Assembly (NCBI GenBank): GCA_030704615.1
Contig: CM060734.1
Span: 51,770,001-51,834,000, forward strand
Origin: Takakia lepidozioides
Taxonomy: Eukaryota > Plantae > Bryophyta
Reading direction: 5' to 3'
Length of the DNA stretch: 64,000 nucleotides
Position 1 is the stretch's first letter. Every line of letters begins with the position of its first letter. Made by a program: the position numbers and the translations under genes. The notes beneath the pieces were generated by a model. The model made no database searches and had not been told where the DNA came from. It saw only the letters and a list, made by a program, of their open reading frames with translations. Of the stretch, positions 6,421 to 64,000 are shown piece after piece.

Positions 6421-6422
6421 TT

Positions 6423-12990: not shown

Positions 12991-13119
12991 ACAGTGGTAT
13001 CCATGACAAACCTTGCAGCATGATTTGCATGTTGAACGCAGAGCAGTCACGGGCTGCAGTTACAACGGAGTATGGAGCACTTGTCGCTAGGCCAGCATAT
13101 ATGACCAGGGCGCCAAACA

Positions 13120-13360
13120 AGCGTGACACAGCCTATCACAGCCCATCAAGGAGCCTATCACAGCATCACACGTCACAGCCATCAACACAAGCCCCATCAC
13201 GACGTGACACAGCCTATCACAGCCCAGCACGGGCGACACAGCCTATCACAACCACCGCGTGTCACAGCCTATCACAGCTTACCACAGCATCACAGCCTAT
13301 CACAGCACAGTATGCCTATCTCAGTATGACACAGCCTCACAGCTCAACACAGCCTACTAG
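13120..13360 (+). repeat. CACAGCCTAT-type short tandem repeat between pol and extra ORF
   Basis: Repeated cacagcctat/cacagc units, related to the repeat at the LTR start. Confidence 0.75.
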
Positions 13361-17400: not shown

Positions 17401-17522
17401 TCAGCCTCCAGAGGGCCTCACTTATCCAGGTAGTTTATTCTCATAAAAAAACGAATGAAAAAAAAATCCCCCAAAAAAAAACATTTCGGGTCGGGGGAAA
17501 TTAAACATGGCGTGAGAAAAGT

Positions 17523-37630: not shown

Positions 37631-39850
37631 CTAAACATCATGTCTCAGTAGCTTCAAACTCCAAAGTGTGGTGCTTCCTACCACATCCCCCAACACAGTA
37701 TGTTTCGTAACATCGTTGAGATATGGTAAATGAGCGTTAGTGATGTATGCCTCTTTGATGTATATAGCCGCATACTCAGCTGGCACATCAGGGTAGCCCT
37801 CACTTACCTTGCAGCCTTGCAGAGAACATATAATCCCTGATCCAACCTTTGTCCGTTTGGACATCACGTTAAAGAGCCGAACTTGGTTTCCTACCTTAAA
37901 CTGTCATCCCAGCACCCACCAACAAAAACAATGAGTGAAAATACCATGCACGCTAGACTACGGAGGTCCAAGCATTATAGTACTTAAGTACCGGGAGGGG
38001 GGCTGCAACTATTTAATAGGGATGGATGGAGGGAGGGGAGGGAGGAAGGGTAGGCAGGAAGGTCTACAGCCAACAAGTTGCAGCAAACAACATACATACA
38101 CACACACACATTTTAATTTCGTTCTCTCTACCTACCTACCCAAAAGGCTATGCCAAACACAAGGTCTTATGAGTACTTTCTGTACCTACCCTTGGCAATA
38201 AACTGAAGTAAGATCCCTCACAATGGTCTCCCACTGGATGCGGAGTCTATGACCACAAGGATACAACAAACGTGAAGGACGGTAGTCTACACTCCAGTGG
38301 CCTCATAAACAAAATTGGAAAAGAAAATCATGGACTTACACCAAGCTGACTTTCAGGCGGCTGCGAGAACTGCTTGAGAAGGCTACTTCCCAGCTCCTCT
38401 GCTGACTTGTTGACAACATGGAGCCGCTTCATCATAGGTCCCTATATCACAAACCATTACAATTTCTTCAGTGGCATTACAACCTGAAATACACTAGTTA
38501 CATAGCTCACTCAAGAGAAACCCACTGCTCATGTAATTCACAAACAATCCAAGAATTCCAAATGTACTGGACCAGACTTACATTACATTGTTGTACCTTC
38601 TGACGATTACACTGAGCAGAATTGTAGGGCTGTTGTCCAAAGAGAGGCTCAGACTTCAAAAACTGTGGAATACTATGAGTCTTGCTTGCCCTCTCCAAGA
38701 ACGGCCACAACACATCGAGTAGATAGCCATCTTTTGGCCCTGATGATCGCATTTTCCATGGCTCCGGATATATCCCACTAAATGGAGGATTGTTTGATGC
38801 ATTTCTTGGTGTGTCATCAACAAGAAGAGTGTCTTCAGGACCCCATTCTGGTCACTCTGCCCACACTCTTGATAGGTTCCTCAAATATATGGGCTTTGCA
38901 TCAGCCCCCCTAGCCAATGGGTCAGTAAGCTCTTCACAGTAAAAGGCATCCCACTGGAAAATAAGATTAGTGTGCCCTTTGAAAATAAAGTCCACCATCG
39001 GAATGAAGTTGCGAGCTTTGCAGCAAGACCACACTGCCACCTCAAAGTGTGCAAAACACTTTTGCAAAAAAGAAATACAGCTGGATCTCAAAACTACCAT
39101 TTTCATCCCACACAACTTCCCCACAAATCCTTTGGGAACAGTTGTTGGACCACTAGCAACATGAATGGATTCACAGAGCAATCCATTCACATCCAAAACT
39201 AGCAAGTGCTTGCGAGGTGGGGGACTGTAAACGCTCACCTGGCTTCAACATATCAGCCCCAGTGGGATGCACAACCAATTGAAATGCCGTAGCATCTGTC
39301 CCATCCTCCCCATGTGAATTCCCCAAGGAATCATGCATACCTGAATCCGGTGTACCAGGCTTCTCAGACATATCGCGGGCATCATGATCAGTAGCTTCCT
39401 TTGTACCAGAGGCAGGCTGACTTGAAATTGTTGTCTTAGTGCCTGCCTTCCCTATGGCGAACTGCTTGGACAAATGCAAACCATCATCGGTGATAGGGTT
39501 AGGGGAGAGTTGAGATTGATCGCCAGTTATGGTCTCAAACCGCTCCGCCAATCTTTTTGTATACAGTGACACCAGAACCATTCATGCCAGATGTCACTGG
39601 ACCTGCCAGGGGGACATTAACCCCCAATTTGAGCATCATTGCCTTATGAGAGTCCATCATGTTCTGCATCCATGATTTCATCTCCAGCATATCAGACCCT
39701 TGAGCCTCGACTTGTTTTCCCATTGCATCCACCTTTCCGACTATGGCAAAATACGCTACACTCGCTTCCTGCCATATAGACAGAAATGCATAAGACAACA
39801 TGTTCCAGCAAGTTTTTTTCCACCTGCCAATATTTGAGCACAACATCAAG
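37631..39850 (-). pseudogene. CACTA/EnSpm TnpA-like gene with FCP1/NIF-type HAD phosphatase domain (copy 2)
   Basis: HLLVLDVNGLL, FEVAVWS, LRNLSRVW, TLLVDDTP..NNP, LWPFLE..FGQQP; C-terminal exon KVGSGII..HLPY..LGDVVGSTTLWS. Same architecture as copy 1. Confidence 0.65.
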
Positions 39851-40536: not shown

Positions 40537-43500
40537 TCAAAGAGAATTTGGCGGAGCCCTACGTGAGGTGTCCCGCTGCAGAAAGGTGATGACTTCTCCG
40601 TAGCCTAGTGTGGCTTGGTGAATGAATTGGTCTTTCTTACCGTCGCAGCACATAATTACAAGGTATATGTAATATTGATGCTGGCAGGGGACCCACTTCT
40701 CTCTCATGCCGAGAGCGCCCTCACGCATCGTTACAAAATCCGGACAAGTGCACGTAGGGAAATTCCCCACGGTAACCTGATATTCTTTGCCATGAAGAAC
40801 TGAGCCAATAGACAGCACTGTGTAAATCCGTCCATACCCCGGGGCAGGGACTTCGGTGATATGAGTCACCCGAGCCTGCAAAATTCTAGCCGATTCCATC
40901 TTGCATTCGTGATCTGCACCCGAAGCAACACGGCGCATTGTTTTTCCATCTCTTTTTGTTGGGTGGGAGTCGGCATCGGCTGGAGGCATTGCCGGAGCAT
41001 GTGACACATCTGAGCCGACAGTGCATGAGGGCACCACCCGGGACCGTGCAAGACAAAACCCTCCCTCCTCCAGCATGCTTATCTCGGTTGATGACAACGA
41101 CGTCCCAAGTTTGACAAACCAAATTGCGGGGGGAGGGGGCTTCATTATCACCGAAGGACAAACTGTTCCCTTGACGCATCGTGCCATATCGTCTGGGCAG
41201 AACCAGAACTTGTGGTCCTTTGACTCCCCACTATGATAAGGTCAGAACAACCCTATGAATGTTGGAGCTGGAGTCCCCCTGGAGCCTTTGCATATTTTTT
41301 ATTTGCATTTCTTGAAAGAGGGGGTCCGAATTGCCATGCAAGCCACTCTAGATCCTGGTGGGGTGCGTTCTATATGCCACTCACTATCAATGCAATCATA
41401 TTCATGCACCGTGGCCACCACCTCCTCCAATGAGATTTCTGCTGCTGTGTTTGCATGATCTGCACCTGCTCCACTGGAGGAGGACCCACCTGGGAAGGGG
41501 CGGGCACACGACTTAGTCTGCACTAGAGACACCTTTGGTACAGAGAAATTGACCCTGTCCAGCCAATGGGAATCTCCATCCGACCCTGGAGGAGTGTTCA
41601 ATTTCCTTTTGCATAATCCAAATCTTTCCTCGCCTTCCAAATGGGGGACCTTGGATTACAAAGGGGAGCCTTCAGTGCACCTGTTCAGAGCTCTGGCCAT
41701 CTTCGATGGGTCTCCAGACCTACTCGCAGCCCTTAGCATCACAAAGTCGTATCAGGGCCCTTGCCTCGCCTCCGCCGTCCCATCAGAAAATTGCGGTACC
41801 TGGTTTTTTTGTGTAAGTGCCCGCACCATGTCATCAGCAGTGGCCACATACAAGTCACGTCCTGCTTTGGTAGACTGCTGCATCCAGGCGTTGTGAACAG
41901 TCTCCGCCAAATTACAGGATGGCATGTCGGCCAAGTCCTCCAAGGACATGTCCTGTAGGAGGCATTGCATAGAAATGTGAGGAACGAAAGGAAATGGAAG
42001 AGGTTCTGCAAGTGACAATCCAACAACCCCAAACGAACAGGCACGATGCAAAGTTAAATTTGTGTTTCTGGGATTGAAGAGGCTTACCGTCGTCATGAAA
42101 GCTCCCCACTGTCTGTACCTGAAGTGCCAGAAAACCAACCAGTCCTCCAACTCCTTCAGGTGGATACCAGTAGCAGCACCAGAGGAGAACCACCAAGTCC
42201 GGATTGCTTGGTAAGTGCTCTCAGCTTCTCCCATTGAGGTGACATTTTTATACTTCAGGCAGAGCCTTTTGTGCTCTAAAGGTCAGGGCGAATGCAGCGC
42301 TTTGTATGACGTGCCAGCGATTGACTCCAATGGAAGAGGCATGTGCGCTCCCTATTTTCCATTGGGACCTTAGGATCCCCCGAACCAAACACGCGATGCA
42401 CTGCATTGAAATTCGCCTCTGCACTATCAGCCATGAAGCCCGTAAAATTTGTGTTCTATATTCCGTTGCGCTGCATGACGGCCAGGAGCGAATTAAGCAT
42501 CTGGGATTCAGTGTCCTCCGACTGCATATCACAAATTGCTATGGAGAGCACACGCTGGTACGCTGGATCGTACACATGGCACGCCATGGTTGTCCAACCC
42601 TTCACCCGTTTGCAGTGATCAAACATTAACCAACATTTAGCCTCCAGGTTGCATTCGGCGGACTATGCTCACACCATTGCCTTCGCCCACTGTGGACATC
42701 TTGAACAAATACACCTTGGATGAGCCCTGACCAGGGAAGATACTGTTTTGAATGAATTCATAGCGACTCCTCCGTTTGAGGTCCATAATGTTGTCCATGA
42801 ATCCAGCAGTGCCTGTGCCCTTTCTGAGTGCATTTACCTGGTTTCGAATATTGGGAGAGCTCAACATGGAGAAATGGTCCATCACTGCATCAAGCGAATC
42901 TGCATCCAGCATTGGTTGTGTCGCATCCCTTTCACCCAGTATGTGTTTTTCCAGGAATGCCTTGCTAGCTGCAAGCGCTATAGTAGAAGGTGTTGCACAA
43001 GGGGCATTGTGGAACTCCTGCTTCAGCAGATTTCTAGCGATGTCCACGCTATCCCTGCAACTTCCTTTGGACACAGGATGCTCGTGTGTACCCATATGAA
43101 TGCAAGCACGAGTCATAATCTTGCATAGGTGTGCCACCTGGTACATACGAGCGTGACACACAGAAACACAGGACGGGGAAAGTTTGCAGAACCTACACAC
43201 AAAAGTATTGATCTTGGGATGGGCAAGCCCTGGGGTGAAAGAATTCAGGGGCACACCTTCCCACTCACTTTTGTTTGGTTTAGCGTTGTTTCTTAGCCGA
43301 GGGCAAGAAATATTCACGCACTTGCAATGCCCAACGCAAACCGACCTTCGAAATTTCAATCCAATGTCGTTGTGGATGTTCGTCGTTTTTGTCCTGCACC
43401 AAGGGTGTCCGTCATGTTTCTTGTCCATGCCCTGCAGAAGCCCAGCTAGTCCACTGGAAGACGTGGGAGGGTTGAGCTCAAACAAGATGTTCCATCAAAC

Positions 43501-44050
43501 TCTGCAAGCACATATTGAACCCACTGCACACGAAGGGACTCCCAATCAACAAAACGCAACTCGCTCTTGCACCCAGGCACCCCTGCGAGGGCTTTGAATT
43601 TCGGAATGACACTCGTTATCTCCTGCAATTCGTTGTCATCCAAGAATGGAGTTTGCACTGGCGGAGGAATCTCATAAACATCCTCCGAGGACGAGTCTGA
43701 AAGAGTCACGAATATAGTGGATGTGCTCACCTTTTGTTTCACATGAACTGTGCCCTTCTGCTGCACGACCGATGCTGCAGTGACAGGGGTAACTACTGAT
43801 CCTGCTGATTGTCTTCTCTCTTTTCCAAGGACCCGGTATGTGCCTGGAAGGACTCTCCACTTCTTTCCACACTCGCCAACCAATGGTTTCTCCAAGTGCC
43901 CAGAATCCAAACTCCCATCCTCGTCATACACCTCTTTTTGAACAAGCAGAGAATCCAATTCCAGCGGGAACACTGTAACCAGCTCATCCTCATGAACAAC
44001 TGCAAACCCATCGTTGTCTGCACTGGCAGTGAGTGGAAGACTACCTGCAT
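40537..44050 (-). mobile_element. MULE/Mutator-like DDE transposase with N-terminal GCM-type zinc finger and C-terminal SWIM (spliced, frameshifted)
   Basis: DGHPW..TNIHN..FRRSVCVGHCKC..C..CRFC..GTHEHP (GCM/WRKY-like); MFDHCKR, FMADSA, CLFHW (MULE CxxH), CNLAETVH (E); SWIM CTC..CQH. GT-AG intron ~41960-42090. Confidence 0.8.
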
Positions 44051-45053
44051 TGGAATGAAATCGAGACTGATCGAAAGTTGCGATTCACAACGGAATCCCC
44101 GAACTGATAGCCCGTAATTCTCGAAAGGGGATCCACCACAAACAAACTGAGGTCAATAAGGGTAGCACTGACCCAAAGACTGGGGGCGATACATGCAAAG
44201 GATGTAGGAATGACAAGCACCGAACTTCGCAGACAGCCACACTGAGAGACACCAACCAGAAAAACTAAGCCACAAGAAGTCGTGCTGTATTTGGATGAAA
44301 AACAAACCCTGAACATGACATGAAACCATCCATTATGGAAAGACAGCAACAACCCTGGAGAGCAGTAAACAGGAAGACCCCGAATCTAATGAGGTTGTAC
44401 TGTGCCAGAAGAGCACAGCACAAACACTGACACTCCGGGGACACACCTCGCACGAATGTGTGTAACACATGACCATTGCCGACACAACCCTTTATACCGA
44501 ATGACCCCATTGCGACGGTGACGGCGAAATGCAAACTGCAGGGTAGGCAGTGCAACACACGTGGATGCATATGTGAAGCATAACAATTATTGCGAATCTG
44601 CAAGTACTGCTCGAAATTGAACTAGCATTAGATTTCTACGACACTTCCGAATTTGAAAGAATGCAAGAAGGCTGCCATGTATTGGCAGGCGGCGAAGTAC
44701 ATCTGACATATATCACAAGTACATGCAACGGATGTACTTTTTATCTACCACTTTATTTCTTGGATAATACAAAGACGCCGAAATGGATGAATTCCGTTCG
44801 CACACAATGATAACAGCCGCATCCAAATACGGTTAACAATGTCAAATTTTTATTTTGGTTACATGCCATAGCAACCCTTGTTGCAAACGTCAAACTGGAG
44901 AGCTCTAGAGGCAGCGTGGGGAGCCCTTGTTTCCAGCAGAGGAGGAAGAGAAGGAAGTCGTTATACTTCACAAGCACTAGGGATAGTGTCGTGCGCATAC
45001 ATATCGCTACACAACTACATCGCTGTCCAAACCACACCACACATATATGCACA

Positions 45054-45398
45054 ATAAGAAAGCTAAGGACACTGTTGACACAAAACATATGAAATGCATC
45101 GCTATCACTCTTTATAATAGAAGTCGAGCCAGGGGCACCCCAAGCTATGGGGACTCCACCCCACAACAACCTACACTCCCATCATGAGTACACTCAGATC
45201 TAAACGCATGCAGGAGCTCGGTCGCGCAGGCTCAACTCGAGAGAGATGAACTGCGCGACTGCCGCTCTCGTGAAGATAAGACGGACCAGGTGTCAAACTA
45301 AACTTGACACCTGATTTAACACTTGACCTAAATCCAAGTTAAAATACAAATAACTAGTTTTATGCTAGCTGTTTCACACTGTGCTTATTAACTTGACA
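45054..45398 (-). repeat. Long repeat A2 (copy of the 5' terminal repeat)
   Basis: First ~285 bp appear identical to 56785 onward; a few differences in the remaining ~60 bp. Confidence 0.95.
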
Positions 45399-45400
45399 GC

Positions 45401-45475
45401 TGTCGTGCGCATACATACGCTATATCGCTAACAACTACATCGCTGTCCAAACCACCACACATGTATGCACAATAA
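45401..45475 (-). repeat. Short repeat B1 (second copy B2 forms the element end at 44987-45057)
   Basis: tgtcgtgcgcatac...caactacatcgctgtccaaacca...gcacaataa present twice, flanking A2. Confidence 0.92.
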
Positions 45476-45490
45476 AGTAGTCTACCACAA

Positions 45491-45500
45491 TCGCCCCCCT
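45491..45500 (-). promoter_or_regulatory. Polypurine-tract-like site (AGGGGGGCGA)
   Basis: Purine run on the coding strand, just before a TG and the 3' repeat block. Confidence 0.55.
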
Positions 45501-45749
45501 AGCTGGTGGATAGGTCCCTCTACCTCCAGATAGCTACAAGACGTAATAGCCATAGCCGTACTAAGTCCTCTATCACTGTCCCTATCGTACTCAAACTCAT
45601 AGACCAAGAGCCGGGTACAAGAGTAGCCCATCGTTAGTCGCCGTCTTGCAATCTGTGAACTTGAGCCAGGACTTCGTGTATTCAAGGTCTCCTGTAGCTG
45701 GGCCTTGCGTTCTTATTAGCCTCCCATGGTTGTATCCACTCCCACTATC

Positions 45750-47210
45750 CAATGCTTGTGGACATAACCAATCCCCATCTGGAACCATCTCAAGAGGTGG
45801 AGTCAAGCACCCCATATGCCAACCTCTAGAGCATCGATCACACACCAGCATGGTGGCTGCCCCTTTAGCAGACCCACACAACATGCACCTCAAACCGGCA
45901 GATACCACTGCCAGGTTTGGGTCAATCCTGCCATCGACATTCGGAAGGTGACATGGCGCACAATTACGCACATGGTCCTTCCAAGTTATGCCATCCCGAC
46001 CCTCCAAGACCAAGACGCCCTGAGGGCAAGACCTCTCGAACCCTCAAAATAACACGTCCTGCAGTCACATCCAGGGTCGTAGAGCAATCTGCTGCAGATA
46101 GACATAGTCACCAGGGTTGAATCTCCGAACCTCAGGACGATAGCCCCACCACGTATGGTAGCATACCTCAACGTATCACGGTGTTGTGCAATGGCAAGGT
46201 TCTCGAAAGCCATGGGCATGACTCTCTTGAACACTCTGCACGCTGCTCACATGCACGTGCCCACCCGTCCGGATCGTCAAGGTTAAGAACTGTAGCAGCT
46301 TCTTCTCTGCGAATGGATGTAGGCAAATCCGGCTCTCGGCCAAAGAGAAGAAAGTATGGTGAGAAGGAGGCAAGTGATGCTGCTTGCTGAACCTGTAGCC
46401 CATGGCTAACCAGGGTAACTGAAGGTCCCAATCTCCTAGGTGTCCATTCTGCAAGCCATACTTGCGCAAACCCCTCTTTACTGTCTGAACAACTCTCTCT
46501 GCCAAGCCATCGGCTTCAGGATGATCCCGAGAAAGTGGTGCGGTGGTCTATCAAGGGCCTTGTCACACAAAGCCTGAAACTCCCCCAAGAACTCTCCCTT
46601 GGTCCGTGAGTACCTCAGCTGGAGCACCGAATCGGCTAAGCACACAATCCAAGAATGCATACGCAGCTCCCTCACTAGCCTTATCAGGCAATGGAACCAA
46701 TTCAATCCACTTGGAGAAGTGCTCCACCATCACCAACACGTACTTGTTGTGGCGCATGGTCAGTGGCAACGGCCCTGCGAAGTCAAGACTCCACCTGTAG
46801 CCCAATCCCATGATCGGAAGAGGGTGCAATTGTGGAGTAGGGGCGTTGAATGAAGCACGCACCCTGTCACACACCATGCACCTAGCCACAAATTGTTGCA
46901 CCTCTGTGTGCATACCACGCCACCAATACTGCCCCTGCAGTAGACTATGAGTGCGTCGCACCCCAAAATGCCCCAACTCCTCATGGGCATGCCGCACTAA
47001 ACCGTGCCCGCTGTGTTGGGTGAGGCACAATCCTCACTCGCCCATCCTCCCATACTCGAAGCAGGTGTGTCCCCTCCCACCTGAACCTCTTGGCTCGTTG
47101 TAGGATCCGATCCCTCTCCTTGGCAGTCATAGTGGGCTGTCGTGTCCCACTGCGGAGGTAGTCCAACACAAACTGAATCCTCATGTATATCTTTGGCGCC
47201 ACCCTGCTCA
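45750..47210 (-). CDS. Integrase (HHCC + DDE) with C-terminal PHD finger; frameshifted in this assembly
   Basis: HEELGHFG..CMVC; WSLDFAGP; TDQG; AERVVQ; PHD CMLC..MLVCDRC..WHMGCL.PPL..VPDGDWLCP (~45755-45887). Confidence 0.92.
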
Positions 47211-47392
47211 TTGCTGGCCTCAGGGTCCTCAGACACTTGATCTACAGTCATCCCTGTTGTAGGTCCAACCTGGCCTTCCGCTGCCAGATACACAGAAATG
47301 CAGATGCATGCCATCCGGGCACCATCTCCTCTCCGTCTCACCATGCCACCGAGCTCCAGTGTCATCCTGCTGGCTCGTGCATGGATTGCGAC

Positions 47393-48718
47393 TCAACCCA
47401 TCTGCATTTCGATTGACCAAACCCGGTCGATGCACCACCTGAAAGTCATACTCTTGAAGGATGAGTGCCCACCGTGCAAGCTTCCCCGAAGCTTGTCTGA
47501 CTCATCAACCACTTGAGTGGGTTGGTGATCCGTGACAAGGGTGAAGAGATTGCCGTATAGATAGCACCTGAAGTGTGCCACGGCCCACACTGCAGCTAAG
47601 CATTCTCCCTCATATGAGCTATACTTAGACTCTGCAGCATTGTTCGAGCGGCTAGCATAAGCCACTACGAACTCTCTTCCCTCATCATCCACCTGTGTGA
47701 GCACCGCTCCAAGCCCCAGCATGCTCCAATCTGTATGCAGCTGAAAAGGACGCCCCCTGATAGGTCGTCTCAAGATGGGCGCCGAGGTCAACCTCGCCTT
47801 GAGCTCTTGAAAAGCTTGTTCTTGCTCATCTTCCCACTGCCACTCCTGGTCCACCTTGGTCAGCTTGGTTAGAGCCTTTGCAATGGCACTAAATCCCTTA
47901 ACAAACCGTCTGTAATAGTTTGCTAACCCCATGAAAGCTCGAACTCGGCTCACATCCGTGGGGCGTGGAACCTGTGCAATGGACTCTACCTTAGTCTGCT
48001 GTACCCCCAATCCTCCAGGATATATCATGTGACCCAGATACTCAATCTGGTTGTGGAAAAACTTGCACTTGCCCGGATGTAACTTCAATCCGTGCGTCCT
48101 CAAGCGCTCAAATACCCCCTGAAGGTGTCTCTCATGCTCCTCCACCGTAGCACTAAAGATGATGATGTCATCTATGTAGCACCGAGCAAACTCCACCCCT
48201 GCTAGAATCCTGTCCATGACTCTTTGAAACTCAGCGGGAGCGTTTTTAAGCCCAAATGGTAAGAACCGCCACTGGTATAGGCAATCCTTCCCGTGCTCAT
48301 TGATCCCCCAGAATGCCGTCTTTTGCTTATCCGCCTCCTTGATCGGCAACTGGTGATATCCGGATCGTAAATCCAACGTGCTAAAGACCTTGGAATGCCC
48401 AATGGCATCAAAGATCTCCTCTGGTGTTGGCATGGCATACCTATCGGACTTGGTCTGACGATTTACAGGCCGGTAATCACCGCACATACGTCTCTCCGTC
48501 CAATTGCCATAGACATCCTTCTTAGCTGGCATCACTGTGGCTGAAGCATACTCTCCACCAGAGAGCTCCACCAAACCTGCCTCCCAGAGATCTTGAGTCC
48601 TCATCTGAATCAAAGACCTCTCCATGTCACTGTATCTATAGGGTCTCCGAAAGATTGGCGTGTCAGTGGCCAACTCAATACGGATCTCTTGACCCTTCAG
48701 TGCTCCCAAGTCCTTCAA
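47393..48718 (-). CDS. Gypsy reverse transcriptase-RNase H
   Basis: RMCGDYRPVN, LDLRSGYHQ, LPFGLKNAPAEFQ, YIDD, YLGH, RH HTDWS..E..TDH. Confidence 0.97.
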   Translation of the reverse strand: MKDLGALKGQEIRIELATDTPIFRRPYRYSDMERSLIQMRTQDLWEAGLVELSGGEYASATVMPAKKDVYGNWTERRMCGDYRPVNRQTKSDRYAMPTPEEIFDAIGHSKVFSTLDLRSGYHQLPIKEADKQKTAFWGINEHGKDCLYQWRFLPFGLKNAPAEFQRVMDRILAGVEFARCYIDDIIIFSATVEEHERHLQGVFERLRTHGLKLHPGKCKFFHNQIEYLGHMIYPGGLGVQQTKVESIAQVPRPTDVSRVRAFMGLANYYRRFVKGFSAIAKALTKLTKVDQEWQWEDEQEQAFQELKARLTSAPILRRPIRGRPFQLHTDWSMLGLGAVLTQVDDEGREFVVAYASRSNNAAESKYSSYEGECLAAVWAVAHFRCYLYGNLFTLVTDHQPTQVVDESDKLRGSLHGGHSSFKSMTFRWCIDRVWSIEMQMG

Positions 48719-49169
48719 ACTGAAGGCAAAGCAATTCCTATAAGCCCTCAGGAACCGCCGTATACGTCGTCTCTCTCCTCCGGTGACAATGGGTCCAATG
48801 TCAGGCTCCCAATTGTCCTCCGTAACTGCAACCTTAAGTCCAGTGGGCTTAGAGGTAGAGGACGCGTCCCGTGGTTGCTATGCTGCAACCTCTTGAGCAG
48901 TACCCCCTTCCTGCTCAGTCAATGACAAGGCCTCATCCTGCCCCATCATCTCATCATTGAGAACCTCCTCATCCCGAGAAGAATCCCCAACCTCATCCAT
49001 CACAGCTGCCTTCGCTGCCAACTCCCTCTGAACCTCGAGCACCTCCCACGTGTGCCATGGATGTCTACACCTCGTGGTCCTCACCGGCTCGCCCCCACTC
49101 GCTGCCTGTACCGTCTCGGTAGGCAGAGAGACCGTCAAGGGAAGTGCACTCCGCACTCTACGTTGCTCA

Positions 49170-50125
49170 GCCATAGCCAAGCTGACAATCCAGGTCAAGC
49201 AATTGAGATCCATTGCTTGCCCCAACACCTGACGACGTGATGCCTCAGAAAGAGAAGGCACCGCCGTGGTCCCAGTGGAAAACCCCATAGCCCGCTCTCG
49301 CTCGTCGGCATTAGGCTCCACTAACTGCTGCAACTGAGCATCCCACAGGAGGCCAGGTCCACCATCCCGAAAAGCATGGGATCCTGGGAAGCTGAGCAGT
49401 GTAGGTAATGCTGCTCGTGGTTGACCCACCCTGTTGACCACTGCCAAAGGCGAACGGTCATCGTGTCTCACACGTTGAGACTGCCTTCCTGTGTCCAAAA
49501 TGCCATCCACGTTGAGGTGTGCTGGCCGCTGCACCCCATCAAATGCACGCTTGAGCAGTGCGGGTGGCATCAAGTTAGTCCACCATAGTCGTGGACGATG
49601 AGCCCGTGACCCCACTGCAGCTGCATCCAGCAACACTGCTGACCCAAGCCACGACCGGACTTGATGCACACTGGCCATCACCCTGGCCCGAGAATCACCC
49701 ATCAGTGGTACATTCTCCAAGATGTATGCTGGAGATACAGCTTGATGAAGCTGCAAGCAGCGCAAAATCCGCACCATCTCCCAAAACAGACCCGTCCTCG
49801 AGTCTCGCAATCCATTGCCATGCCCGGCTGATGAATGCCCTTGGCAGGGCCAACCTGCCACTATCAGATCAATGGAGCCAACCTGCTCCAAATCTTGCGC
49901 CCCCAACAAGGAAATGTCTGCTGGCAAGGCTTGTTGGTATCCACGAACTGCAGACACAGGCAACAAGTCAGGGTACTGCTGTACCAACTGAGCACATGGC
50001 GCAGTGAGACGCGTCGTGCAGTCTCATCCCTCTCCACATACAGGTAACGCCTTACCCGCACACCTGCCTGTAGCACAGCAGCCAATCCGGTGCTGATCCC
50101 GCCAAACAAGTCCAGAAGGCAAATG
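49170..50125 (-). CDS. DNA (cytosine-5) methyltransferase domain, DNMT3-like, embedded in pol
   Basis: Ordered C5-MTase motifs: I LDLFGG, II YVERD, IV AGWPCQ (catalytic PC), VI ILENV, VIII AHRPRLWWTNL, IX ERERAMGF, X LGQAM. One 1-bp frameshift near 49992. Confidence 0.93.
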
Positions 50126-50485
50126 CCTTCATCCGGCCGCTGCCACACAAGAGGTGTGGTGTCCAATGGCGACAACTGAGGTGGCCCTGGTGCAATCACC
50201 GCACTCTCCTCCTCTCCTGACGGTACAAAAGCTTCTCCCAAGCTTGTTGCACCCGTCCATCAGCAGCTTGCTGCAAATCCTTGCTCGTACCCCACAACGG
50301 AGTGTGAGCAACCATGGCAGGCAACTCCGCCGTACCATGCATGTCATCCTGCTCTGCTGGAGGTGGCACATCCTCTGCATGGGCATTGCCTTCCAGCAAC
50401 TCTCCAGGCCAACTAACGGCAGCTGTGAAGGCGGCTAGTGTTGGCATCTTGCCCCGCTGGGCAGTTGCAATACCCCCAATGAATG

Positions 50486-53077
50486 TCACAGGAGCTGTGC
50501 ACGGCGACCATCCCCTGACTGCCATCCAGGCCTGTAGGATGCTGACTCCTCCCAGAAATCCAGGGTGAAGCCCATGGGGTATAACACTGCCCCACCAACG
50601 AGGACATCGTAAGAGACCGCGTCTGTCACAATGGCCTTGGCTCGCATCACTGAGCCATCTACAGGATGATCCGGCTGCAGTCTAATAGCCAACTGATGCC
50701 GTGTCATGCCGCGAGCCTGCTCTGATCCTCCCAGAGATGTCTGTATCTGGAAAGGACAAGGCTCCATATCCGCCTCCATGAGGCCCAAACCTGCAATAGC
50801 AGCTCTGCCCAACATCAGTGGCTGAGCTCCTGAGTCCAACAAGACCCGCAGTGGCCGGTACTTCTTGCCTGCCGGTCCACTCAAAGTGAAAATGCCTCCC
50901 TGGTTGTCTAACAAGACAACTCCAGGTGTCACCGTGGCGCGCTCAAAGGCTGGCCTAGCTGGCAGCTCCGTCAATCTGGCAGCTGCAACTTGCCATGGCG
51001 CAGCCGTGGCAGTCTTGACCCTCAAATCCGAGGATCCCTCTGCCACTATACCTTCCACTAACTCCGCAGAAGATGAAGTGACCTCCCCACTCTCACAGAG
51101 AGTTGCTGCTAGTCTGAACACTGCAGCTGGTCTCACCCCCGGCGTCGCAATCATGGTTGCCGAGAACAGTGGGGCTTGACACACAGAGGTGGCTGCCCCC
51201 AATAACACACCGGCTGCACTAGCCTTGGTAGCAGGTGTCAATGCTGCACGTGTAGCTCTCCCCAATGGCATAGTAACCTCCGCCTCGGTAACAGTCGGGC
51301 GAGAACTAGGTGCCATGGATGGCGTTGACACTGTCTCCGCCAAGGTGAATGACTGAGGCAGCCTCGCCTGACGGCTTGCCTCCCCACGTTGTGGATCCAA
51401 CTCCACCTCTGCACCTCGTGGCTCAGGAACTCGTGCTGCTCCTCGAGTCACGGCTGCAGCAGACTCCACCTGCTCTAGTGGTAGTGCTGCTCCGCACATG
51501 AATCCCATGCCTCCCATATCTCCTCCCTCAGGAGCAGGAGGTGGACCATCCCGCCTGGGAGCCGGTACCGCCTGAGCTATAGCCATGGCAGCGAGCCTCT
51601 GCTCTAGCTGCTGAAGCCGATTGGCCATGCCTTGGTCAACACCCTGACCTCCGCGTCCTTGGCCATGTGGAGCTTGCCCTTGGCCTGCACCTCGTGCCCG
51701 ACCACCTCGTCCTCTTTGGGCTGGTCCACCTCGCCCCCGGCCACCATTGTTCCCTTGGAACTGGCCTGGGCGCAACTCAGGATGCAAGTCATAACACTGG
51801 GCATCTACATGCCCATACTTGCCACAATGCCCACACTGCAACTGTGCAGGCTGTGCTTGTGCCGGCCTTCTGCCATTCTCTGGGCAATCTCTTTTGACAT
51901 GGGGTCCTCCACATGTCCAACATATCACCCCTGGTTGCTGTTGGCCTGCAAAAGATGCCACGGGCCTCTGCACCTGAGGTCCCCTGTAAGCTCCATGGAA
52001 CTTGGGCTGGGCAACCTTGCCCCCCTGACCACGCTGTTGGGCAGTCCCTTGTGCCTGTGGGTTGACAGTTGTGCCCCGTGCAGGCATGTCCTTGCCAAAT
52101 CCAATTGTAACAACTCGCTCCTCCACCATGTTGAGCTCAATCCGCTCAGCCAGCAGAAACACATCTGCTAATGTGGGTTGGGCTGCTTGTAACAGGGTTG
52201 CATCTCGCACCCTTCTCTTGAGCTCCTTGTCCAGAATTCCATACCAAAACTGGATTGCCTGAGCTTCAGTAACCCCTTGGGTCACACTTATCAAGCGCCT
52301 CATACGAGTGTACGCCTCTCGCAGGCTCTCACTGGGTTTGCGCTGGAAGTCTTGCAAACTTCGCAGCTTCTCTGTCCGTACACCTTGGTAGTTCCTCCGC
52401 AACTCCTGGAAGAACTCCACCACCGGGTTGAATCTAGGCACATGTGTTGTAGTCGTGGCAGGAGGAGTAGTAGCACCTTTTGAACTGGTACCACCTGCAG
52501 AAGTACCAGCACTACTTGCTCCACTACTAGTGCTGGCAGTGGGAGCTATTGGTACTGATGCAGCTACTGGTCGCGTCGTGCCTCGAGTAATGGAGACGTA
52601 GTCAGGTGACCAATACATCCTCCACTCCTCAATCTCTGCTTCATGTCCTCGCCTGAACTCGTGGTAATCGTCCATAGGCGGGCCTTCCAAATGCTGGAAC
52701 AGTCCCTTCCACGCCATGAATGGGGTGAATAGCTGTGGATTGCGCATCTGCTGCAAATCACACCAGCTGTCAAACTCCTGGATAAAGTCATCCAACTCGA
52801 TTGTGCCCACAGCTCCAGAGTACCTACGAGGCCCCTTGGTAGCTCCATACATCTCCTCCATGTCGTCCCACAACAATGGCGAATGAAAGTGCACACCTGT
52901 TGATGAAGCCTCCGAGTCTGTGTCTGACTCTACAGTAATTGAGGGTGGCGGTGAAGGTGGTCTGAACCGAATACCTCGTCTTGTGAACCCACTCTCACTG
53001 TTACTGCCTGTAGCCGTACTCCCCTCAAAACCCTTGGGTAACTCCGTAATGACACTCACAATGTGCACCTCCTCCAC
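50486..53077 (-). CDS. gag: gag-protease polyprotein
   Basis: 863-aa open frame: capsid-like region (LQDFQRKPSESLREAY), knuckles CWTCGGPHVKRDC and CGHCGKYGHVDAQC, RGG tract, protease LLDSGA...DVLVG. Confidence 0.92.
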   Translation of the reverse strand: MEEVHIVSVITELPKGFEGSTATGSNSESGFTRRGIRFRPPSPPPSITVESDTDSEASSTGVHFHSPLLWDDMEEMYGATKGPRRYSGAVGTIELDDFIQEFDSWCDLQQMRNPQLFTPFMAWKGLFQHLEGPPMDDYHEFRRGHEAEIEEWRMYWSPDYVSITRGTTRPVAASVPIAPTASTSSGASSAGTSAGGTSSKGATTPPATTTTHVPRFNPVVEFFQELRRNYQGVRTEKLRSLQDFQRKPSESLREAYTRMRRLISVTQGVTEAQAIQFWYGILDKELKRRVRDATLLQAAQPTLADVFLLAERIELNMVEERVVTIGFGKDMPARGTTVNPQAQGTAQQRGQGGKVAQPKFHGAYRGPQVQRPVASFAGQQQPGVICWTCGGPHVKRDCPENGRRPAQAQPAQLQCGHCGKYGHVDAQCYDLHPELRPGQFQGNNGGRGRGGPAQRGRGGRARGAGQGQAPHGQGRGGQGVDQGMANRLQQLEQRLAAMAIAQAVPAPRRDGPPPAPEGGDMGGMGFMCGAALPLEQVESAAAVTRGAARVPEPRGAEVELDPQRGEASRQARLPQSFTLAETVSTPSMAPSSRPTVTEAEVTMPLGRATRAALTPATKASAAGVLLGAATSVCQAPLFSATMIATPGVRPAAVFRLAATLCESGEVTSSSAELVEGIVAEGSSDLRVKTATAAPWQVAAARLTELPARPAFERATVTPGVVLLDNQGGIFTLSGPAGKKYRPLRVLLDSGAQPLMLGRAAIAGLGLMEADMEPCPFQIQTSLGGSEQARGMTRHQLAIRLQPDHPVDGSVMRAKAIVTDAVSYDVLVGGAVLYPMGFTLDFWEESASYRPGWQSGDGRRAQLL

Positions 53078-53590
53078 GTGACACTATAAGGCTCTAGTAC
53101 TAATCTAATAGTGACACGGGTGGGCACCTGTTGCAGTCTAAGGGTCATATCCCAATGGCTCAGGGCACCTGCATCCACCGCAAGAACTCCTATGGTTGGC
53201 TGGTCATCAACCCAGCCTCACCATAGAAGAAACACTGGTGGTCTTGCTGGTCATCACTCCAGCCTCACCACCGACAGCATACTCTAGGATTGACCGGTGA
53301 TCAAATCCGGCCTAATCCCTATGAAAGCAAGCGCCCACACAAAACCAACATGGCGCACAGTCAAGCATGCAGGTGTTGGGGGGGATCCAAACACAAGAAA
53401 TCAAAACATCAACACCCCCACACCAAAATCCAGCTGCAATGCTGATCCTGCAGAATATCCCAGCCCAAAACCCCGGACTGACTGGCCTCCACCAAGAGAG
53501 GCTTTGGCAACTACAAGTACAAGGTAATGAAAATAGTACAGAGATGGAGGGGAAGAATAGAAGCCCGCCCAAGCAAGATCTAATCCTGAT

Positions 53591-54340
53591 CTATGCTATC
53601 AACTTCCAGACTTCTCTCAAAGTGCCTCGCTCTGCTTGATGGTAAGGTGTAGGAGGTATATCTATGTCCAGAAACCTGCCACTAACCTTGTCCCAAGCTA
53701 CAGTAGCTCGCTCTAACCAACCCTCCTCCTCTTTCTGCCAGGTAGAGACAAAGCAACACTCTGCTATCTCCCGCTCACTGAACACTAAAGAAAACAAAGG
53801 TAGGGTCTGATAGTCTCTCAACTCGAAAGCTTTGAGACGGTTGCGGGTGTCTTCATTGCGAATGACTGCATCGCCTTCAAACAGAACAAACTTGTCCTCG
53901 CTAATGAACCCCCGCTCGTGGTTGCCTTGTGCAGAGCGTGTCCGACTGCAACACTGTCTAATTGCACAAACTTGTGCAGCTCCTGCTCCTCTGCTCCAGT
54001 ACACCACGGCCTTGTGGCTGAACACCTTGGTCCCCGAGGCTGTCTTTGGCTGTGTTCCAAGCCTAGCTTTCACCCACTTTGGTATTTCACCTACAGCTGC
54101 AGAACTGCTGGCTCCAACAGAGTTCTGACTGTTCAAGGCGATATTGAGGCCCTCAATGCCAACTACAGCAGTCTGTTGTCTACTGCTAATGCCTGACTCC
54201 CAGTATGCAATCAACTCGTCCAACTGTTCTCCACTCAAATCAGTCTGAGTTCCTTGGGAAACATAAATCGTGTCCCCTTGTGTGCACAGACTAAGAGAAG
54301 AGACCTGCCCTTCAATTACGTCCTCATTTCCCCCAGCCAT
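53591..54340 (-). CDS. Unknown 249-aa ORF upstream of gag, inside the element
   Basis: ATG-initiated, uninterrupted, same strand as gag; no recognised motif. Confidence 0.45.
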   Translation of the reverse strand: MAGGNEDVIEGQVSSLSLCTQGDTIYVSQGTQTDLSGEQLDELIAYWESGISSRQQTAVVGIEGLNIALNSQNSVGASSSAAVGEIPKWVKARLGTQPKTASGTKVFSHKAVVYWSRGAGAAQVCAIRQCCSRTRSAQGNHERGFISEDKFVLFEGDAVIRNEDTRNRLKAFELRDYQTLPLFSLVFSEREIAECCFVSTWQKEEEGWLERATVAWDKVSGRFLDIDIPPTPYHQAERGTLREVWKLIA

Positions 54341-55041
54341 GCATGGAGTACATCCACCAATTTGTCTCTCATATGGACCAGCACAGGTTCTAGAGACAGG
54401 ATTGTGGATCTTTCATGGCACACTCACACTCTAAAAATTCCATAGATTTTTAGCAGAGTCCCCAAAACAGAAACCAGGTTTAGATAGGTAGATTTCCCCT
54501 TTCTGTAGCTATCCCCCCAAAAACTGGGTCAAACAGAGTCCATTTGACAAAGATATGATGAATTTGGCTCCAAATCATTCAAATTAAATTAAAAAGGGGG
54601 GTTTTTTTTTTTTTCTTAAAGGTTTTCAAGTTTTAAAAATTCAAAGTTACACTCAAAATATCTGGTAACTGGTTCCCGGTTCCCTAAGTTCTATATGGCA
54701 TCCTAGGTTCCCTGACCACGTGACTGTTGTTCCCCTCCATTTCATTTGAGTTCAACAGCTCACCATGCTTTGGAATCCCAACCGTCTTCTACCACAAACC
54801 GTGGTGACGATGGAGTTCGTGAAGCGATCCTTCCCAGTGAACCCTCGAGAGACGAGTCCCATGTGCACTTGATATACACTCTCTTAATAGAGATCAAAAT
54901 CAGCAAGGAGACACCATTGACGACACCCAGAGATCAGAGACAAGTACTTGCGCAGTTCGGAGGCCACAGCATCCCCTCTGGACACTGAGCGGGGAATAGC
55001 TGCTACACAGCAGCTCAGTCTATCGTCAGCTCCTATACCTA

Positions 55042-55494
55042 CTAGCTTCCTGCCCCTGCCATAATCAAAGAGACAAGTGACACAACACCAGCTGGAAACA
55101 CCTTTCCTGAATTTTTGTATCGAGAGCCCATCACAAACAAGAGAAGCCTTGAAACAGCAACACCGATAGAGGACGCAAGGACAGGGTTCGAGGGCAGGTT
55201 CAGATAGACATAATAGAGGATCAGAGCTGACCCTCCCCCTGACAGCAATGACTTGCTGCTCCCAGATTTTGCAAATCCGATCACTCCTCCCAGACCAACA
55301 AGGACTGCATACGCCAAGGTCAGCTTCTGCGACATAGACAGCTTCATCTTTCCGTCACCACTTCCCTCTTCCTGTCCTCCCTCACCACCGTTCCCGTTGC
55401 CTCCATTGCCCGACACTTGGGTTACATGCTCAGCCAGACCTTCAAAAAAACCTGGCCCAAAATTCACTGGCTGCTCGGACACTGGCATGACCAA
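55042..55494 (-). pseudogene. Captured TMEM14/FATTY ACID EXPORT (plastid FAX2-like) sequence with divergent C-terminal end
   Basis: Gly-rich linker then LSMSQKLTLAYAVLVGLGGVIGFAKSGSSKSLL..GSRY..SGKVFPAGVVSLVS, typical of the plant FAX/Tmemb_14 domain; no introns. Confidence 0.85.
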
Positions 55495-55973
55495 ACCTCT
55501 TTAACTCCAATCAGCCTGCTGCTGAGTTACGATCTCATCACCAAGCAAAATCTATCCCAATGCCCAGTTGAGCTGCCAGTCTCGCATTCACTTTCCCCAC
55601 CAAGGCAGCTGCAGTACACTGACTGTCTTAGCTCCCTCCATGACAACCTCCCGCATTTGGGCAAGTTCAGCTTCACGGACCTCCCAGCGACTTAGCAGCT
55701 GCTTCAGGTCATGGTCCTAGCTAGCGCATGCTGGGCTGCAACCAGTTGCAGATCCTTATCGTGTAGAAACCCCTTCACTGCTCTCTTTCCATCTCCTGAC
55801 GCCATGCTCCATCCTCCAGCCACTTCACTTGTTTCAGGCACCCAGGTCCCTATGGGCAGGTCACATGCTCCGGCAACAGGAGTGCTCTCAAGCGGACATT
55901 GAGCGCCCTCCACTGACTCAGTTGAGTGTGCAAACCTTTCTGCTCATGCAGTTCCAGCAGTCAATACTCACTC

Positions 55974-56465
55974 CTAGTGATGATGATGTTCATGCCCTAG
56001 AAGACCACCCTCTCCTATCACCTTCAACTGAAAGACTTGGCTGCAGTCTGAGCATTCATACTGTTTGTCCTTCTCCAGCTTGAACCATGTCACATCATGC
56101 TCATCCTCACCAACACCTCCTGAGCACCCAACTATCCGCTCATCATAGTGTGACTCCACAATTGCAGGGGCATCCTTGGTTCCAAAGGGACCACGAGGCG
56201 GATCCAGATCAAAGCGCTTCCCACCCGAGCGCTCCGCTTCCAACTCCTCCAGCTCAACTCCTGTTGCAATTCCAAAATCGCCCGAGCTGCCTCCTGCACT
56301 TGCCAAATCACGACTACGATGCAGCCACCGCGCATATGAGAGACCCCGATGTTCTGATTGCTCCGCTTGCGGTTGCGGGTTACACAGCAATGTCGGTGGA
56401 GGCACACATGGTACACGCCTGGATGCAACCAACCGTGAGAGCCTGCATCCAGCCGTCCTCAACAT
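55974..56465 (-). CDS. COX5B: Captured intronless cytochrome c oxidase subunit 5b copy
   Basis: IATG.E.EELEA, GPFGTKDAPAIVESHYDERIVGC.GG.GEDEHDV.WF.LEK..ECSDCSQ.F.L, His-rich end; Arg-rich presequence-like N-terminus from ATG 56465; single open frame. Confidence 0.92.
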   Translation of the reverse strand: MLRTAGCRLSRLVASRRVPCVPPPTLLCNPQPQAEQSEHRGLSYARWLHRSRDLASAGGSSGDFGIATGVELEELEAERSGGKRFDLDPPRGPFGTKDAPAIVESHYDERIVGCSGGVGEDEHDVTWFKLEKDKQYECSDCSQVFQLKVIGEGGLLGHEHHHH

Positions 56466-56782
56466 AGCGCCCCACTCCCTCTGGGCCTTGCCATCACACC
56501 ACCAGCTGCCATCGACATATCCTCCGCAGACGGCGACGCCCTTACAGTGGAAGCACACCTCGCCAATGCCAACAGAAATATGGGCAGACCACCATTACTC
56601 TCTCTTCTACCACACCATTGCGACTGGAGATGTGAGACGAACTCAAGCTAGAGCCGTTCTATGCTCCTTGCTTGAGCTGCGTACAAGACCATGACCATCT
56701 ATATTATAATAGTGCTTAAAAAAACAAAAACATCATATCTAGCTTAGCACTGGAAAACTAGATAGTGCTCATCTCTCTCGAG

Positions 56783-57132
56783 TGATAAGAAAGCTAAGGA
56801 CACTGTTGACACAAAACATATGAAATGCATCGCTATCACTCTTTATAATAGAAGTCGAGCCAGGGGCACCCCAAGCTATGGGGACTCCACCCCACAACAA
56901 CCTACACTCCCATCATGAGTACACTCAGATCTAAACGCATGCAGGAGCTCGGTCGCGCAGGCTCAACTCGAGAGAGATGAACTGCGCGACTGCCGCTCTC
57001 GTGAAGATAAGACGGACCAGGTGTCAAACTAAACTTGACACCTGATTTAACACTTGACCTAAATCCAAGTGTTAAATACAAATAACAAGTTTTATGCTAG
57101 CTGTTTTCACACTGTGCTTATTTAACTTGACA
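56783..57132 (-). repeat. 5' terminal repeat A1 (TG...CA on the coding strand)
   Basis: Coding strand reads TGTCAAG...CTTATCA; copy of 45054-45398. Confidence 0.95.
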
Positions 57133-57489
57133 ATAGGAATAGAGCCAGATATAGAATGAGGATGGAAAGAGTAGATGAAGAGGTAAAGGAGGAAGAAGAG
57201 GGCAAAGAGGAAAGTCTGGTGATGGAAGAGCAGGATTCTGGAGAAGAACAGCAGCCCGCCATACTTCCAAGAACTAGTGAGGAGGAGACTGCATCCGAGG
57301 GAGAGACGGACGCCGAAGATGATGTTGATGTTGGCCTCACAAAGAAGCAGATAGTGGGAAAGAGGATGGGGGAGATGCTCCAGAACATGCTCGGCGTAGA
57401 GAGCAGTCCGAAGCGCAAAGGATCTCCGGCGATTGGGAAGTCTTCTGGAGCACCCAAGAAAAAGGTACAAGTGATGGCCAAACCTACTT

Positions 57490-60170: not shown

Positions 60171-60284
60171 GCACAATGCTTGTTTTCTCATGTGAAATGG
60201 GCCAAATCGGGCCTACCTGCCATGCTCTAAACACCATCTGTTCTTGCATCTCTCATATATCAGTTTGAATGAACAACCGTGTAG

Positions 60285-63200: not shown

Positions 63201-64000
63201 TCCAGGTTGGAATGCTTTTGATGAGCGCTACTGCGGTTGGATTTTCTCCTTTTGCAATTTCTTTCTGTCTGATGCAGGTGTTTTGGTGCTCATCCAGTCC
63301 ATCGACCTTCGCTGTCGCCGTGCACTTGCCAGCTATTTGAAAGCCTCCGGTATGAGGGTCGTGAAGACATGGAATTGTGTGAACAACATGTACCTGACAA
63401 AGGGGGATCGTCCGGAAGAGATGGTAAATCTGCCTTCTTGTTCCTCTTCTTGGTGGTTCTCGGATGGAGTTGCATAGGTCGCTCAAACTCATATGTAGGG
63501 GCCTGGTTTTGAAGCTTCTTAGTCCCTTGTGGATGTCATGTTCAAAGACTCGTTTGTTGGAAGCTGTTTGTCTCGTCCGAGTGCATCCACCTACGACTCC
63601 GGCCGTCATTAGGGAGTTTGCCATCACTCATGGGGCCAAGTTCATAGACGAGAGGACAGATCCTCCCACGGATGATATGTACCACAACTACGTCGACAGC
63701 AACGTGTGCTTGCAAAGGGGGAATGGGGTTCCTTGGAGAGGGGCGAGGGAGAGGAGCCCGGCTTTCATTCAAACGATTGTGGAGTGCTGCACCTACACAG
63801 ATGCCAGAGTTCTGGATTTGTCAATGGGCATAGGTTCGTCTCTTCAACATTCACATTTCATGAGGTTTGTTTGAGCTTGCACTTTCAGCACTTCCCACCG
63901 TTCCAAATGTGTCTTCAATGTCTGTTTCCTTCATTCTATTCCATTGCAGGTGCTTCGTACCACGCTTGCAAGGCTAGTGCGCGACATCTGAGATTTACAA
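60285..64000 (+). CDS. Spliced gene: ParB/Srx-like N-terminal domain + beta-class N4C/N6A amino-methyltransferase-like C-terminal domain (runs off the window; has lesions)
   Basis: VRP..DILKL..F..GY and FHVWDSNHRL.AW (DGxHR-like). ELIILDIPDG (motif IV position), ERSPAFIQTIVECCT..DARVLDLSMGIG|ASYHACK (motifs X-I), joined across in-phase GT-AG intron 63834-63949. 4-bp duplication frameshift near 60720. Confidence 0.7.

Follow-up and report, generated by a model that had tools for sequence, protein, structure and literature searches.

A PHD finger on the integrase of a methylase-bearing Gypsy retrotransposon from Takakia lepidozioides, and a conserved stop codon between methylase and reverse transcriptase

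A Ty3/Gypsy retrotransposon of 12.1 kb in the genome of Takakia lepidozioides carries a PHD finger on the C terminus of its integrase and, upstream of a stop codon, a DNMT3-like C5 methylase. The element lies at 57132-44987 on the minus strand of a 64,000-nucleotide stretch (GenBank assembly GCA_030704615.1, contig CM060734.1, positions 51,770,001 to 51,834,000), hereafter the window, to which all positions refer; it has TG...CA ends and a 4-bp target duplication, CTAT, within the 4-6 bp typical of Ty3/Gypsy elements. Its domains run in the order Gag, protease (PR), methylase (DNMT), stop, reverse transcriptase (RT), RNase H (RH), integrase (INT) and PHD, which includes the PR-RT-RH-INT order of the Metaviridae. 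The finger on the integrase is almost certainly a property of the family. Since a conserved and likely leaky stop separates the methylase from the finger, the latter probably aims the integrase and not the methylase.

Results

The PHD finger follows the integrase and is conserved in relatives

The coding parts of the element, all on the minus strand, are as follows.

45755..45887, minus strand: PHD finger (C4HC3) at the integrase C terminus, with the eighth ligand out of frame in this copy
45888..46565, minus strand: C-terminal part of the integrase, probably a helical linker and then a beta-rich SH3-like domain, with several frame breaks
46566..47033, minus strand: zinc-binding H2C2 domain of the integrase and start of the rve core (PF17921, 57.9 bits; PF00665, 40.4 bits)
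47396..48877, minus strand: start of the second open reading frame (ORF2), with RT and RNase H; the first Met is codon 85, past the conserved RT sequence
48872..48880, minus strand: conserved in-frame stop TAG (48880-48878) and then CAACCA, a CARYYA context of the tobacco mosaic virus (TMV) type
48881..50259, minus strand: DNMT3-like C5 methyltransferase, end of ORF1
50489..53083, minus strand: Gag with zinc-knuckle-like Cys/His motifs and aspartic protease, start of ORF1

The finger starts at the Cys codon 45887-45885 and stands directly after the integrase C-terminal domain, where, as the first-pass annotation of the window had pointed out, chromoviruses have a chromodomain. Its reading frame matches the Pfam profile PF00628 at 43.1 bits (E 4e-11, cut-off 24, profile positions 1-46 of 47), which bears out both the finger and the coordinates proposed for it, and over 45887-45755 shows the spacing C-x2-C-x11-C-x2-C-x4-H-x2-C-x14-C. 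In frame, 7/8 of the C4HC3 zinc ligands are present; Ala occupies the eighth position, beyond which the frame stays open for ~50 more codons. The closest protein relative (P0001, 86% identical) has the C terminus C-x2-C-I-G-stop, and the same I-G-stop is found in the neighbouring frame of the window, which supports a one-base frameshift at ~45755 and hence the earlier suspicion that the last Cys had been lost by a 1-bp change. At position 45756 the window departs from most sister sequence in 4/4 runs compared; the 12 indels listed, from 57 against sister contigs, do not extend to this exact place.

As assembled, the window copy of the element is broken. Frame breaks at 46591, 46555, 46532, 46380 and 46143 leave no single open frame from integrase to PHD. 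Compared with the window at 45054-51200, a sister contig differs by 8 gap letters and 5 other letters (substitutions) over 2173 nt, an excess of indels that is a sign of long-read assembly error around this region. The terminal repeats A1 and A2 (see below) are identical over their first 286 nt; 3 gaps and 2 mismatches separate them over the rest. Given this near-identity and the gap-rich sister comparison, the element has likely inserted recently, with most of its many frame breaks being errors of assembly. An AlphaFold model of the integrase tail and PHD was poor (mean predicted local distance difference test score 55), with weak fold-search matches (Tudor plus PHD, and PHD), and is not relied on.

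A finger out of frame with the integrase in the family would have told against the first-pass proposal; among the 120 RT homologues listed (of 2538 matches), 52 have the two in frame, as RT-RH-INT-PHD (38), DNMT-RT-RH-INT-PHD (7) or RT-RH-DNMT-INT-PHD (7). The last order, a chlorophyte type found for example in Scenedesmus, occurs 22 times among the 150 DNMT homologues listed (of 3237). Sixty of these 150 have an integrase, followed by a PHD in 40; among the remaining 20, several break off too soon for a verdict. Matches to the PHD reading frame itself hold rve and PHD in one chain in 6/51 cases, most others being shorter gene calls that start in the integrase tail. Named members come from Marchantia, Calypogeia, Sphagnum, Coleochaete, Closterium, Klebsormidium, Scenedesmus and Monoraphidium. 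Element members form one RT-RH clade with support 1.00, separate from four chromodomain-bearing rows, in a midpoint-rooted FastTree phylogeny of 126 sequences and 338 columns built without a curated reference set.

In these relatives the PHD is under purifying selection. The ratio of nonsynonymous to synonymous substitution rates (dN/dS), over 42 codons, was 0.04-0.38 in 17/18 between-subfamily pairs (one saturated), and 0.46-4.8, with few changes, in 10 pairs of decayed copies inside one subfamily. Of 101 distinct pattern-matching fingers, 84 have Cys as the last ligand and 12 have His. The finger might be a neutral passenger or stand beside the integrase by chance, as a fragment of a host gene that this copy picked up in the manner of its COX5B insert; the element does hold captured host coding pieces, and its own PHD is broken. 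The finger keeps its place and frame in lineages that range from Scenedesmus and Klebsormidium to Marchantia and Sphagnum, and dN/dS is well under 1 between subfamilies; these results have already largely refuted that explanation and leave it a very small probability.

Family members also surface under other labels. In Marchantia, Calypogeia and Sphagnum, many predicted genes labelled as PHD or methylase proteins are fragments of the element, and one ORF2 protein of the clade (P0291), deposited under an uncultured Synechococcales cyanobacterium, probably stems from DNA of a plant or alga that ended up in a metagenome bin.

A conserved stop with a readthrough context separates methylase from RT

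The closest full-length methylase relatives are Gag-PR-DNMT proteins of ~1,250-1,440 residues that end at the site of the window's TAG. We examined 58 homologous loci, 35 of which include the RT start; with the window these give 36 sequences (28 clusters at 97%). An in-frame TAG or TAA stands at the homologous place before RT in 36/36. The hexamer after it is CARYYA in 8 and CARYYC in 26 (34/36 CARYY), and the remaining 2 have a doubled stop one transition from CAR. By comparison, CARYYN follows 76 of 10,882 other TAG/TAA triplets, and the CARYY context is found at 0/7 terminal stops after PHD. The plan is unbroken in L025, with an ORF1 of 1369 codons, TAG CAGTTA, and an ORF2 of 1047 codons ending in a complete PHD. 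RNA structure downstream of the stop, scored against mononucleotide shuffles, gave z of -1.2 for the window and -1.7 to -2.9 for four relatives. The readthrough of SIRE1 env is reportedly a similar case.

In TMV, CAR YYA is the sequence required for readthrough, and according to the available text of PMC2754532 it functions in plants with UAG and UAA; the hexamer after the in-frame stop of the element is the same. What the stop divides is particular to the element, in which Gag-PR-DNMT is parted from RT and the enzyme is thereby placed on the abundant side. From this context, ORF2 is very probably made by stop-codon readthrough.

Alternatively, ORF2 could have a start of its own, through reinitiation, splicing or an internal promoter, and methylase and PHD would then never share a chain. 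In the largest subfamily an AUG stands at codon 3 after the stop, which would allow reinitiation as well; L026 and L033 have one at codon 5 or 14. The Coleochaete transcript P0144 contains ORF2 as a complete ORF. The stop contexts, moreover, are less numerous than they look: 26/34 come from one subfamily (sixth base C, AUG at codon 3) and, as the sequences share descent, there are about four independent observations, not 36. These points count against readthrough. A separate start is nevertheless quite improbable in our estimation. No Met stands ahead of the conserved RT sequence in the window, L025 or L049, CARYY has been retained despite different R and Y bases in four subfamilies, and Pol must normally be tied to Gag for packaging.

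The stop also qualifies the first-pass description of a chromatin reader and a DNA writer in one polyprotein. This is not supported for the window branch, where all 36 sequences have the stop before RT and one chain would form only through readthrough, and it does hold in other branches that have a true single ORF (P0181 and P0187, as well as the chlorophyte type with DNMT beside integrase).

Sequence features of the finger suggest unmodified histone H3 as a likely ligand

We take the cage Trp site of the family fingers to be the position two residues before the His ligand. Among the 101 distinct fingers this position is Gly in 96, Ala in 4, Pro in 1 and Trp in 0; in a wider finger set Trp is found in 1/40. 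The residue after the third Cys, at the end of strand 1 and corresponding to the H3R2-binding position, is Asp in 95/101. The available texts of PMC10124903 and PMC5415848 describe H3K4me3-binding PHD fingers as having a cage with a conserved Trp, and binders of unmodified H3 as having acidic residues in place of it; in the UHRF1 PHD an Asp holds H3R2 and the A1 loop (PMC3214078, available text). H3K4me3 reading by the finger is therefore unlikely. The missing cage Trp (0/101) and the retained Asp (95/101) argue for the unmodified H3 end, which on balance we favour as the ligand. The best PDB sequence matches are CHD4, PHF12, KDM5 PHD1, DPF3, ATXR5, BHC80, BAZ2A/B, UHRF1 and AIRE, and the 60 best matches listed are mostly fingers that we presume to be of the unmodified-H3 class, an assignment that draws in part on PMC10124903, PMC5415848 and PMC3214078. 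The finger would probably guide integration through chromatin.

Several observations weigh against this. The 36 close-group fingers are basic, with a mean net charge of +3.1 compared to -4.3 in 18 chlorophyte-type fingers. An acidic wall is found in 1/36 and any acid before the first Cys in 2/36 of the close group, acidic K4-holding residues being commoner in distant members; with this charge and these losses, H3 binding could be weak or absent. Closterium-type members (11 of the 120 RT homologues listed) retain DNMT and integrase but lack the PHD; part of the clade can therefore do without the finger. The single insertion site in the window says nothing on targeting.

The finger may accordingly read no histone mark in this branch. 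It could instead extend the integrase tail as a structural element or one that binds DNA or nucleosomes, or it could bind a non-histone host partner. Charge, lost acidic residues and absence from some members speak for such a role, as do the atypical PHD ligands known from PMC10124903 (available text). We judge it rather unlikely, since the Asp that anchors H3R2/A1 in UHRF1 (PMC3214078, available text) is kept in 95/101 fingers and the PHD occupies the position of targeting chromodomains.

The methylase is DNMT3-like and distant from the finger

The methylase coding sequence is intronless and DNMT3-related, its best PDB matches being DNMT3A and DNMT3B (E 6e-7). Catalytic motifs are present: I (50115, in another frame), IV PCQ (49855), VI ENV, VIII and X. 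Within one RT clade the DNMT occupies either of two places, as seen in P0086-P0096, P0228-P0259, P0338 and others. In Closterium and Marchantia it precedes RT, and in Scenedesmus it lies between RNase H and integrase (RT-RH-DNMT in Monoraphidium). The RNase H-DNMT-integrase group is a single tree branch (support 1.00), which suggests that the DNMT domain moved within pol.

In DNMT3 enzymes the ADD domain, a GATA-like finger plus a PHD-like finger, lies beside the methylase, and the first-pass annotation had likened the element's PHD to it. The analogy is weak. The finger is a plain C4HC3 finger ~1,100 residues from the DNMT, with RT, RH and INT between, and a profile search of 14 window ORFs gave no match to the ADD family. 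Given the conserved stop ahead of RT, the bulk of the methylase would lack a PHD. Coupling of the ADD kind would have the finger aim the methylase as well, in an uncut readthrough product or in the integration complex, so that the insertion and its flanks were methylated by H3K4 state. The enzyme is DNMT3-like and has no reader of its own, and in the chlorophyte type the DNMT directly precedes INT-PHD in one ORF, so that DNMT-INT-PHD could stay linked there; yet in the window branch stop and distance both stand between the two domains, and DNMT is retained where PHD has been lost. We consider that the PHD is most doubtful as a guide for the methylase.

The element ends in split repeats with a palindromic junction

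The remaining features of the element are its ends and its 5' leader.

57133..57136, minus strand: target-site duplication CTAT, 5' side
56785..57132, minus strand: repeat A1 at the 5' end, starting TGTCA, with a TATA-like box near its 3' end
55977..56594, minus strand: captured COX5B coding sequence in the leader, uninterrupted (PF01215, 71 bits)
55045..55500, minus strand: captured TMEM14-like coding piece in the leader (PF03647, 65 bits)
53594..54412, minus strand: extra 273-codon ORF in the 5' leader, with no Pfam family and a weak atlas lead (0.89)
45491..45503, minus strand: purine tract before repeat B1, common to L029
45401..45475, minus strand: repeat B1
45395..45404, no strand: palindromic B1/A2 junction GACA-GC-TGTC, that is, the right end, 2 bases and the left end
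45054..45398, minus strand: repeat A2, 98.6% identical to A1
44987..45057, minus strand: repeat B2 at the 3' end, ending CGACA
44983..44986, minus strand: target-site duplication CTAT, 3' side

In place of two ordinary long terminal repeats (LTRs) the element has direct repeats in split form, A1 ... B1-A2-B2, so that programs searching for LTR pairs would probably overlook it. L029, which comes from a different organism, is laid out likewise and has its own 4-bp target duplication, AAGG. The 10-bp junction palindrome GACAGCTGTC is exact in L029 (10347), L002 (14468) and L033 (8235) and has one mismatch in L025 (about 8656); the subfamilies that have it in common carry otherwise unlike repeats. 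No TGG tRNA primer site was found after A1 in the window, L029 or L002. The family is very abundant in sequencing runs of the organism, with >60,000 contigs matched in each of two runs of one sample.

The leader of the window copy (53083-56785, minus strand) is 3.7 kb long, compared to ~1 kb in L002 and L029, and contains an A-run near 54620-54607 alongside the COX5B ORF, the TMEM14-like piece and the 273-codon ORF. These inserts, found in 0/58 homologous loci, are likely captured host mRNAs.

Relation to known elements

The nearest published system is KnitGypsy-Dnmt3 of Klebsormidium nitens (de Mendoza 2018, PMC5890265), which appears as 'streptophyte Gypsy-DNMT3' in the available text of bioRxiv 10.64898/2026.05.21.726589. 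As described in the available parts of PMC5890265, it shares with the window element the Gypsy domain set, a DNMT3-related methylase and DIRS-like split repeats (A1 ... B A2 B), likewise departing from two ordinary LTRs. Its DNMT, however, is in the Pol ORF with RT, whereas a conserved stop divides the two in the window branch. The term 'PHD' is absent from the main text and three supplements of that paper (Fig. 4c or the largest supplement may show it), and those parts make no mention of land-plant members. The K. nitens protein GAQ89454 (RT-RH-INT-PHD) falls inside the same RT clade. Compared by published description, the window element is a relative of the KnitGypsy-Dnmt3 type and not of the same family.

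Gypsy-7a_cRei of Chlamydomonas (10.1101/2022.06.16.496473) is likewise described as having a Gypsy polyprotein with a PHD finger, and its new insertions are 2.6 times more intergenic than chance, for which the authors suggest targeting. The likeness is one of description: the available text does not list a methylase among its domains, and the place of the PHD relative to the integrase is not visible there. Chromoviruses (Tcn1, Chlamyvir, Tekay, CRM and MAGGY) also carry a chromatin-reader module on the integrase C terminus, and the chromodomain of MAGGY targets H3K9me (10.1101/2021.11.30.470311, available text). They have a chromodomain where the element has a PHD, and the element differs further in its separate RT clade, split repeats and DNMT. 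Membership among the chromoviruses is rejected, with no chromo match in 14 window ORFs, L025 ORF2, P0143 or P0146 and with the RT in a clade of its own. The EpiLTRs of Cymbomonas and Euglena (10.64898/2026.05.21.726589, available text) combine a reader and a cytosine methylase in one LTR retrotransposon, as the element does; theirs are a chromodomain and a DNMT4-sister enzyme, with an adenine methylase, in contrast to PHD and DNMT3-like enzyme here.

Two other placements were rejected. An rve integrase and a target duplication are present, and 14 ORFs gave no tyrosine recombinase match, which excludes the DIRS/PAT order; Troyka, by the available text of PMC12440569, has CG...CG ends and a 3-bp duplication and is confined to animals, as opposed to TG...CA and 4 bp here. 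Phygy and Selgy of REXdb are short elements, with 0 occurrences of 'PHD' in the available text of their source (PMC6317226).

PHD and chromo fusions with transposable elements (TEs) are widespread (10.1101/2021.11.30.470311, available text). Gypsy elements with DNMT, Gypsy elements with PHD and elements with chromodomain plus DNMT have thus been published already, as has the idea of reader plus writer. A literature search, with thin coverage of subscription papers, theses and Repbase, found no land-plant Gypsy with DNMT3 and integrase-PHD; nor did it find a CARYYA stop between DNMT and RT or a palindromic junction; a prior description of any of the three is possible. What the present analysis adds is the extent of the clade, a readthrough signal that sets writer apart from reader, the pocket analysis and the structure of the ends.

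Insertion site and other contents of the window

The region is TE-rich. Adjoining the 3' end of the element, 40540-44100 (minus strand) holds a decayed Mutator-like transposase with a WRKY/GCM-like finger, a DDE-type core with CxxH and a SWIM finger; this identity comes from motifs seen by eye (Pfam SWIM E 0.038, below cut-off; a weak atlas FAR1/GCM-like lead). Pieces of a NIF phosphatase lie at 38507-39244. On the other side, 350 nt from the 5' end of the element, a tandem array at 57478-60188 (the 116-bp array) is made up of ~20 units, 115-127 nt in length, that all contain a long palindrome, CTCAAACAGTGTGC...GCACACTGTTTGAG. The first-pass statement that this copy had landed in another TE is in part sustained by the transposase on one side and the array on the other, but the repeat comparisons, one of which listed 25 of 228 pairs, revealed no terminal repeats enclosing the insertion.

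Elsewhere in the window, a second Gypsy-like element (~5527-18379, plus strand) has two ordinary 850-nt direct repeats that are 94% alike; its frames are broken in many places, and it carries an additional ORF near 14344-14976. Intron-broken ORFs occupy 60285-63874 (plus strand), the last of which ends in a methyltransferase-like 'VLDLSMGIGS' motif recognized by eye and without Pfam support.

Discussion

The mechanism that we favour by a modest measure, from sequence evidence, is that the integrase-tail PHD would bind unmodified H3 and direct insertion to chromatin without H3K4me3, with the methylase in a separate ORF1. At the CARYYA stop a minority of ribosomes would read through, making Gag-PR-DNMT abundant and Pol with its PHD rare. 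As expected from retroelement biology, the protease would free the domains, the methylase would be packed at Gag level and act on particle cDNA, and the PHD would remain on the integrase. The finger would hold the H3 A1-R2-T3 end in the way of UHRF1/BAZ2/ATXR5-type fingers, with no K4me3 cage, and this binding would bias integration to TE-rich, non-promoter chromatin, away from active promoters. Both DNA ends would be rebuilt from the internal B1/A2 junction; cut in a staggered way after CA, this junction would yield processed ends of the ordinary kind.

Methylation of cDNA has been proposed for DIRS-borne enzymes (PMC5890265, available text), and the place of the methylase on the abundant, Gag-level side fits such methylation inside the particle. 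Further points tell against the scheme. The isolated KnitGypsy-Dnmt3 methylase was inactive in yeast, a result its authors call inconclusive (PMC5890265, available text); the observed/expected CpG ratio in the element, 0.51, is no different from the flanks; and the junction palindrome was not found in 4/7 PHD-bearing loci (L012, L013, L016 and L021).

Taken to its full extent, the scheme would describe an old green-lineage Gypsy clade, abundant in bryophytes, with an epigenetic programme of its own. Through the leaky stop, each particle would receive capsid-level amounts of a DNMT3-like enzyme, which would pre-methylate the cDNA; the integrase PHD would deliver this cDNA to bare-H3 nucleosomes, and the integrase would cut the palindromic junction instead of trimming LTR ends; insertions would arrive silenced and could seed heterochromatin without the host small-RNA pathway. 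In this complete form we regard the proposal as speculative and unlikely.

Chromodomains are the main known means of chromatin reading by plant retrotransposons. An integrase PHD, kept in lineages from chlorophytes through to liverworts and mosses, would add a second route, one sensitive to H3K4. Marchantia polymorpha carries copies of the element and chromatin maps exist for it, so targeting is testable from existing insertions. The readthrough signal, in turn, leads to a concrete prediction on the role of retrotransposon-borne methylases, a question left open in PMC5890265 (available text).

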